49,593 nt of DNA. Source: Patescibacteria group bacterium (GTDB lineage Bacteria; Patescibacteriota; Microgenomatia; UBA8517; UBA10165). The DNA is taken from NCBI GenBank assembly GCA_038062025.1, contig JBBTXW010000006.1, positions 1 through 49,593 on the forward strand, in the 5' to 3' direction. Under the pieces are notes generated by a model. It was not told where the DNA came from. It searched no databases and saw nothing but the letters and a program-made list of their open reading frames with translations. The first letter of the stretch is position 1, and each line of letters begins with the position of its first letter. This document shows positions 18,909-18,956 of the stretch, in pieces. The translations under genes and the position numbers were made by a program.

Positions 18909-18956
18909 CTGCTAAAGCAGAACCTTGCTGCTTCGCAGTAGCGCAATTTATTGCGC
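18909..18956. repeat. Solo REP-like hairpin module in the tuf leader
   Basis: ctgc-taaa-gcag (18909..18920), ctgc-ttc-gcag (18928..18938), and agtagcgcaatttattgcgc (18937..18956). The last is identical to 15302..15321. Confidence 0.7.

Follow-up and report, generated by a model that had tools for sequence, protein, structure and literature searches.

Introduction

Systems made up of repetitive extragenic palindromic (REP) sequences and REP-associated tyrosine transposases (RAYTs) are known mainly from Proteobacteria. We analysed a stretch of DNA from a Patescibacteria group bacterium of Hainich groundwater well H51 (assembly GCA_038062025.1; 675 kb in 41 contigs, about 96% complete), namely the complete contig JBBTXW010000006.1 (C6) of 49,593 nt, which is called the window throughout. 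The element in question is a hairpin at 18935-18958 in the 5′ leader of tuf, the gene for EF-Tu. A sequence-only reading of the window had regarded this hairpin as REP-like, had named a RAYT-like gene about 3 kb away as its putative enzyme, and had suggested that REP/RAYT activity or REP-mediated recombination delivered or fixed two neighbouring G+C-rich gene cassettes. We conclude that the hairpin is very probably a solo REP of a RAYT-linked family that landed in the tuf leader, and that the G+C-rich genes next to it are not its cargo.

The E. coli REPtron (REP/BIME sequences, BIME standing for bacterial interspersed mosaic element, plus the transposase TnpA-REP; PDB 4ER8; PMC3479197) shares with the present family a short, imperfect to perfect hairpin with a conserved 5′ head, the occurrence of solos and inverted pairs, and a single-copy HUH/Y1 gene that is flanked by repeats. 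The HUH motif as well as the Y, N and H of the tyrosine helix match. TnpA-REP needs the 5′ GTAG of the REP both to bind and to cleave it (PMC3479197). In contrast to E. coli, the head here is GTAnTA and not strictly GTAG, the stem has more A+T and a length of only 7 bp, the RAYT carries an insert of about 86 aa that consists mostly of translated REPs, and one-third of the copies lie in long open reading frames (ORFs). In addition, the host is a member of the Patescibacteria with a 675-kb genome.

The REPIN-RAYT systems of Pseudomonas (Bertels & Rainey 2011, PMC3116915; PMC3337134) resemble the present one in their inverted doublets with a spacer (here 15251-15323, 15628-15686 and C35:35293-35360), in the single-copy RAYT, and in that many sites are vertically inherited and shared between congeners, with some gain and decay. 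However, the doublet arms usually differ in their stems here, and therefore they are not simple inverted copies, and both head-to-head and tail-to-tail arrangements occur. Furthermore, the RAYTs of Pseudomonas are positionally stable, whereas the present RAYT is found at different loci in two related genomes and is missing at the orthologous site of two congeners. In the GTAG-tagged REP super-family (Di Nocera et al. 2013, PMC3733652), the tagged palindrome, the frequent dimers, the repeats overlapping transposase ends and the intragenic copies all have counterparts here. That survey comprised 8 phyla and was earlier than the genomes of the candidate phyla radiation (CPR); copies between the catalytic motifs of a transposase ORF, as seen here, are not described in the section consulted.

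Insertion sequences of the IS200/IS605 type (IS608, ISDra2) likewise have an HUH/Y1 enzyme and sub-terminal hairpins that are read on one strand, and the block that is missing from the congeners opens with a REP head and ends a few nucleotides past a REP of the same orientation. In contrast to IS200/IS605, there is no TnpB here, there are no multiple full-length copies, and the repeats far outnumber the gene. The Rickettsia palindromic elements (RPEs) are also small palindromes of a reduced genome that are inserted in frame into protein genes, as are REPs here, but they comprise about 100-150 nt compared to the 24-nt unit of the present family. We know of no dedicated transposase for the RPEs, whereas the REPs described here have a linked RAYT.

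The present genome (G000) was compared with two congeners (G001, G002), with its nearest named relative, Candidatus Blackburnbacteria RIFCSPHIGHO2_01_FULL_43_15b (G004), and with the further relatives G003 and G010; these six made up the set for the comparison of tuf leaders. The relatives' genomes have sizes of 0.6-1.0 Mb. The gene order tuf-rpsJ and a G+C content of 42% would have suited a cyanobacterium with SDR-type repeats, a reading that was discarded in view of the genome size and the relatives. The order-level census included 139 genomes, and the RAYT was also searched for in a class-level sample of 401 genomes. Full-text literature searches found no paper treating REP or RAYT systems in CPR/Patescibacteria. 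The REP/RAYT system is real and, within the literature searched, new for the phylum Patescibacteria.

A dispersed family of short hairpins

The sequence-only reading started from a 20-mer, AGTAGCGCAATTTATTGCGC, that was said to be identical at 15302-15321 and 18937-18956. Indeed, the match is exact at both sites, both on the plus strand, and the former copy lies within the RAYT ORF; shuffled sequences gave 0 matches, and 0 were expected. A third, similar copy with 3 mismatches is found at 15332-15351. The full unit is 24 nt long and consists of a head GTAnTA, a 7-bp stem starting with GC, a loop TC or TT, and a tail that is usually GC. The genome was searched with a pattern consisting of the head, a 7-nt arm starting with GC, 2 nt, and the complementary arm, with at most 1 deviation allowed. 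This yielded 57 copies on 20 contigs of G000, about one per 12 kb, compared to 0 in the reversed and 0 in the shuffled genome. An Rfam scan of 14000-20000 (E up to 1) gave zero matches for the REP.

A pattern that demands complementary arms is circular as evidence for a hairpin. Therefore, a second pattern was used that fixed only the head, the GC pairs and the T..A, and left four stem pairs free. It gave 41 matches with 11 stem variants; 38 of them were fully complementary and the other 3 had one mismatch. The stems thus covary, which is strong evidence that the hairpin itself is under conservation. When folded, a single copy has 6 bp in the stem and 4 nt in the loop, with about -6.5 kcal/mol (DNA parameters). 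The heads included GTAGTA (16 copies), GTATTA (16) and GTAATA (7); positions 1-3 (G, T, A) are conserved and position 4 is variable.

The 57 copies comprise 27 solos and 30 copies in pairs or clusters. The pairs are arranged head-to-head (0-25 nt apart) or tail-to-tail, and they often overlap. Crude ORF calls (90% coding) place 21 copies between genes, 16 across the ends of genes, and 20 inside long ORFs. As non-coding DNA makes up only about 10% of the genome, REPs are enriched outside of genes; still, the intragenic share is unusually large. The solos showed no orientation bias with respect to the gene strand (13 same, 14 opposite). In-frame REPs inside long reading frames of G000 occur at C14:19731-19754, C23:3351/3636, C29:1454, C37:4478-4527 and C40:31852-31907. 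The doublet at the last site is conserved in G001 and G004, and G002 has a segment of similar length. Contig C40 also contains two near-identical segments of more than 130 nt (23263-23400 and 24494-24630), which are 1.2 kb apart and each include a REP with the head GTATCA. They are a longer duplicated unit and not two independent REP insertions.

The RAYT gene is flanked and invaded by REPs

The RAYT-type HUH/Y1 gene occupies 14880-15638 on the plus strand. It encodes HYH at residues 58-60 and the tyrosine helix NYIHQNPVKH at 198-207, which corresponds to Y-x3-N-x3-H (Y199, N203, H207). These residues are invariant in 22 homologues and correspond to H59/H61, Y115, N119 and H123 of TnpA-REP. 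The ORF matches Pfam Y1_Tnp and NCBIfam REP_Tyr_transpos (E=5e-21, in two stretches); the score of 75.1 bits for the latter is under the cut-off of 80 because the insert splits the match. The best PDB match is 4ER8, the E. coli TnpA-REP (E=1e-5), with the tyrosine helix aligned. The gene is single-copy in G000, with one full match; the other match belongs to a distant Y1 paralogue family.

Three REPs are translated in frame within the ORF, between the HUH and Tyr motifs, one in reverse orientation (15251-15274) and two in forward orientation (15300-15323, 15330-15353), and the insert of about 86 aa between these motifs is built largely of translated REPs. At the 3′ end of the gene lies a head-to-head doublet (15628-15651 reverse, 15663-15686 forward), and the stop codon TAA is within the loop of its first member. 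The sequence-only reading had noticed the hairpin gcagactaaagtctgc at this end; it is present at 15629-15644 and is part of that true, reverse-oriented REP. The arrangement is not confined to G000. REPs flank and invade the RAYT in G004 (63-66% amino acid identity, 59% by tblastn) and in G173 as well, a member of a different family of the class (48% amino acid identity), and in both of these genomes doublets are found on both sides. Across the wider RAYT clade, inserts of different lengths occur, and they abound in REP-encoded peptides such as LKSAxT, VVAQFIAR and IANFSSR; homologues of about 180 aa have no insert.

The 5′ end of the gene is unusual. The gene's own start codon is missing: the ORF opens with 8-9 codons of host spacer, and these are followed by a half REP, GCAGTAGCGAACTTC (14904-14918, plus strand), that is joined to codon 16 of the G004 orthologue, to which homology begins at 14917. 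In the source annotation, the gene begins at M47, and the first beta strand would thereby be lost. The half REP forms the left edge of a block of RAYT and REPs (14906-15691, plus strand) that G001 and G002 lack at the orthologous site; the left edge could be placed only to the interval 14880-14906, and the right edge to within about 3 nt. In G001 (L017, C1, 7281-7310) and G002 (L019, C10), the conserved rplC leader (up to 14879 in the window) runs almost straight into the sequence that corresponds to 15692. In G004, the RAYT is located elsewhere, between orthologues of genes on contig C31 of G000. The different loci in G000 and G004 show that the gene has moved at least once.

Taken together, the view that the motif represents a REP-type hairpin family, with the HUH gene 3.3 kb away as its putative enzyme, is well supported by the census, by homology and by the linkage of REPs and RAYT. 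The RAYT at 14880-15638 is the best candidate for the enzyme of the family, and, by analogy with TnpA-REP, it would carry out the corresponding catalysis.

G000 also contains a second HUH/Y1 family of about 220-270 aa (YHIYNRG...CLMPNHFHLL...SRYIHLNP) with seven matches, some of them with internal stops; the loci include C23:1573-2262, C29:25483-26172, C39:2441-3136, C16:19002-19664 and C34:7085-7675. This multi-copy family was considered as the partner of the REPs and rejected, as it is present in 80 of the 139 genomes, including 68 genomes of family f3 without any REP.

Distribution and turnover of the REPs

The strict REP pattern was found in 6 of the 139 genomes of the order, all of them members of family f1, with 0 control matches. 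The numbers of strict copies were 45 in G001, 35 in G004, 28 in G000, 5 in G010, and 2 each in G002 and G003. The RAYT of this type was detected only in G000 and G004 among the 139 genomes, i.e. in two genomes with 28 and 35 strict REPs, and in 5 of the 401 sampled genomes of the class.

To follow the turnover, the sequences on either side of each of the 38 REP loci outside the window were searched against G001, G002 and G004, and selected sites were aligned. G000 and G001 have several orthologous sites in common, some of which are also found in G004. Other copies are restricted to G000, for example, a 21-nt in-frame solo in a 636-aa gene (C14:19731-19754), which is absent from G001, and a 55-nt doublet between two genes (C35:35293-35360). 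The REP at C22:6149 has decayed in G001. Shared sites, copies found only in G000 and a decayed copy together show that the REP family is inherited and is still gaining and losing copies. With regard to polymorphism between strains, exact look-ups of the RAYT and EF-Tu proteins matched only the same strain from the same well.

The REP in the tuf leader

The tuf gene (17711-18895, minus strand, ATG at 18895) encodes the 394-aa EF-Tu. The solo REP in its leader (18935-18958, plus strand) consists of the head GCAGTA, the stem GCGCAAT, the loop TT, the stem ATTGCGC and the tail GC. It is located 40 nt before the ATG and downstream of the promoter, and the predicted transcript carries its reverse complement, GCGCGCAAUAAAUUGCGCUACUGC. 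None of the five relatives examined (G001, G002, G003, G004 and G010) has a REP in the tuf leader. A second, independent assembly from well H51 (a contig of Hain_H51_01um_R2) contains an identical leader including the REP, which excludes an assembly artefact. The tuf copy is an ordinary, lineage-specific solo insertion in a permissive 5′ leader.

The promoter-like site, TTGACA-17-TACAAT (19025-19053, minus strand), is predicted and fits in 11 of 12 positions. All six species share TTGACA-17-TA(C/A)AAT with the same spacing upstream of tuf. Directly after it, a conserved leader hairpin, GACCAGTGGTATTGCTGGTC, is followed by a T-run (18996-19015, minus strand). Its stem shows compensatory changes in the relatives, as read by eye from the alignment, and the Rfam scan had no match for it. 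Located at the beginning of the predicted tuf transcript, this hairpin could serve in attenuation or stabilise the 5′ end, or it could be the terminator of fusA, overlapped by the tuf promoter.

The identity of the tuf copy with a copy inside the RAYT gene might be taken as an indication of local hopping. This argument was rejected, since it is not significant: 7 of 51 other copies share a 16-nt core with one of the five copies at the RAYT locus.

A second repeat family adjoins the tuf REP

The tuf REP abuts a member of a second repeat family (family 2), which is older than the REPs. This copy (18902-18940, minus strand) is composed of CTAC, hairpin a, CAAGGTTCT, hairpin b and AGGTTCTTA. On the plus strand, hairpin a is ctgc-ttc-gcag (18927-18937) and hairpin b is ctgctaaagcag, i.e. 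ctgc-taaa-gcag (18909-18920). These are the small hairpins that had been described as an echo of the RAYT 3′ end. Both are present as described; they belong to family 2 and not to the REP family, and the echo is therefore superficial. The GCAGTAG end of the family-2 copy doubles as the head of the tuf REP, which is why this head is GCAGTA instead of GTAGTA.

With one mismatch per conserved arm allowed, family 2 has 12 matches in G000, compared to 1 in the reversed control; the loci include C20:27177, C25:3656, C31:13185/13876/19299, C35:7381, C37:2360 and C39:19034. It occurs in 36 of the 139 genomes and in all three families of the order, with covarying stems, conserved arms and 0 control matches, and it sometimes forms tandem arrays with a period of 36-39 nt. 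The Rfam scan did not recognize it. A copy without a REP is present in the tuf leader of G001, and G010 has a copy in the rplC leader. The second Y1 family is present in 28 of the 36 genomes with family 2 and in 52 of the 103 others, a count that is uncorrected for phylogeny.

The architecture of a REP joined to a family-2 copy recurs independently in G004 (contig C23). There is an outside chance that the tuf copy records the choice of a target, with the REP hairpin set exactly against the GCAGTAG/CTAC end of the older repeat. If RAYT insertion prefers GTAG-tagged hairpins of another repeat family and if family 2 is the partner of the second Y1 family, two interacting HUH/hairpin systems would exist in these tiny genomes, and they would offer a natural read-out of REP insertion specificity for RAYTs.

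The G+C-rich cassettes are older than the REPs

The genes fusA (EF-G, 19568-21739), tuf, rpsJ (17383-17694) and rplC (14054-14752) belong to a ribosomal-protein gene row on the minus strand that has two gaps. The rpsJ-rplC gap contains the RAYT-like gene, a G+C-rich 270-aa gene (cassette 1; 15777-16589, minus strand), a retropepsin-like gene and a DUF5678 gene. The fusA-tuf gap contains a small G+C-rich ORF (cassette 2; 19090-19482, plus strand) of 130 aa from ATG 19090, or possibly 101 aa from GTG 19177.

Orthologues of the 270-aa gene are found in the same rpsJ-rplC gap of G001 (two copies, 62% and 48%) and of G002 (44%), where the block of RAYT and REPs is lacking. In G001, the gap is occupied by a diversity-generating retroelement (DGR; L017 (C1) 3508-7195). 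It includes a reverse transcriptase in two ORFs (4320-4898, 4895-5479), bAvd (5478-5825), a short repeat of the target C-terminus (5833-5946), and target-like genes at 3508-4323 and 6212-7195. The 270-aa gene is orthologous to these target genes, and the presence of a DGR in the gap of G001 indicates a different origin for cassette 1.

Weak homologues of the 130-aa protein are encoded at the equivalent position and in the same orientation in G001 (145 aa) and G002 (149 aa). The three share the C-terminal motif RLxFxRW(M/L)VExG(K/R)(L/M), with pairwise E values of 3e-4, 1e-4 and 2.5e-7, and no family for them was found in Pfam, NCBIfam or PHROG. A metagenome scan with the 130-aa protein yielded only a distant 117-aa protein on the metagenome contig Ga0163151_10009128 (L053, 1480-1830), in an unrelated context and with the motif GRLVFTRWMVENDKL. 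The C-terminal motif may define an undescribed small domain. As both cassettes are present at REP-free sites of the congeners, both predate the arrival of the REP and of the RAYT. A long inverted repeat, AAAGCCGAGAGG...CCCCTCGGCTTT (19494-19546), lies between the convergent fusA and 130-aa ORF and looks like a shared two-way terminator.

Weighing the explanations

According to the explanation that we favor, the RAYT at 14880-15638 is the most likely agent of REP spreading. By analogy with the E. coli TnpA-REP, it would bind the folded hairpin and the head on single-stranded DNA, cut, and rejoin. One REP would have landed in the tuf leader in the lineage of the present species, between the conserved promoter and the start codon and directly against a repeat that is older and unrelated and whose end has become the head of the REP. 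The two G+C-rich genes would be older residents of two permissive gaps, the one a remnant of a DGR target and the other a fast-evolving small orphan. Each gap appears to have its own promoter and to collect unrelated extra DNA, and the closeness of REPs and cassettes would reflect this common tolerance and not a delivery by REP/RAYT.

Several points weigh against this explanation. Only about 20 of the 57 copies have a G at position 4 of the head, so the heads are GTAG-like and not GTAG. REPs are most numerous in G001, but searches of this assembly (92% complete, 80 contigs) yielded no RAYT of this clade even at E up to 10. The RAYT in the window has lost its start codon and first 15 codons, and, judging from this, it may be inactive now. 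The tuf REP is placed in the 5′ untranslated region (UTR) by a promoter that is predicted, albeit conserved, and the tuf leaders are too diverged between species to set the insertion junction to the base. Finally, some versions of the G+C test described below show a weak trend to G+C-richer surroundings (P=0.016 with the window loci included; P=0.024 at 750 bp, which is partly due to the G+C of the REP itself).

The idea that REP/RAYT activity or REP recombination brought in or fixed both cassettes, and that REPs mark their boundaries, has the local geometry in its favor. The REP at 15663-15686 is within 100 nt of the 3′ end of the 270-aa gene, the tuf REP is about 130 nt from the 130-aa ORF, and all six REPs of the window are located at these two gaps. 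However, the tuf REP and cassette 2 have the conserved promoter and leader hairpin between them, and the far boundary of either cassette is REP-free; a marking of the boundaries by the REPs is not supported. The relatives also speak against delivery: the block 14906-15691 is absent from G001 and G002, which have the 270-aa gene, both cassettes occupy the same sites there without REP or RAYT, cassette 1 is part of a DGR in G001, and the tuf REP is missing in five relatives. In addition, the highest G+C value among the 500-nt windows around each REP locus was compared with that at random gene boundaries. With the window loci included, the mean was slightly raised (P=0.016), and the counts for windows from the 95th and from the 99th percentile upward gave P=0.22 and P=0.11. 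The 38 loci on 19 other contigs showed no significant association, neither for the means (P=0.11 at 1.5 kb and 0.16 at 3 kb) nor for the counts (P=0.15-0.67 at all reaches). The sequence-only reading had called for such a genome-wide census and had itself named a lack of association with atypical DNA as the outcome that would refute it, and this is the outcome obtained here. Delivery of the cassettes by REP/RAYT is thus extremely unlikely, and we prefer to regard them as earlier residents.

Two further alternatives concern the tuf hairpin and the agent of spreading. The hairpin might have been co-opted and be kept for the 5′ stability of the mRNA or for the tuning of EF-Tu translation. It lies within the predicted 5′ UTR close to the start codon, the leader folds better than shuffled sequences (-41 kcal/mol, z=-2.9), and REPs in enterobacterial mRNAs are generally known to affect stability (see also PMC3733652). 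But the REP is lacking in the five relatives that share the promoter and the first hairpin, it is one of 27 solos without orientation bias, and the hairpin alone is weak (-6.3 to -6.7 kcal/mol, DNA parameters), which makes co-option unlikely. Alternatively, REPs might be spread by another agent, such as another nuclease, the multi-copy Y1 family, or slippage and recombination, and the linkage would then result from REPs piling up in a dispensable RAYT. The 45 REPs of G001 without such a RAYT and the 5′ truncation of the gene in the window would be in line with this. However, REPs of this type lie around and within the RAYT in three lineages with protein identities as low as 48%, the variable insert contains REP-encoded peptides across the RAYT clade, only the family with this RAYT has the REPs, and multi-copy Y1 genes are common in REP-free genomes. 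Another spreading agent is therefore quite unlikely, and the RAYT is retained as the candidate.

Implications

The gaps of this operon with their own promoters gather REPs and other extra DNA independently of one another. For the annotation of these genomes, this means that a REP beside odd-looking genes does not mark the latter as REP cargo. A 675-kb genome that has been stripped to essentials still holds REPs, and such repeats thus persist under extreme genome reduction.

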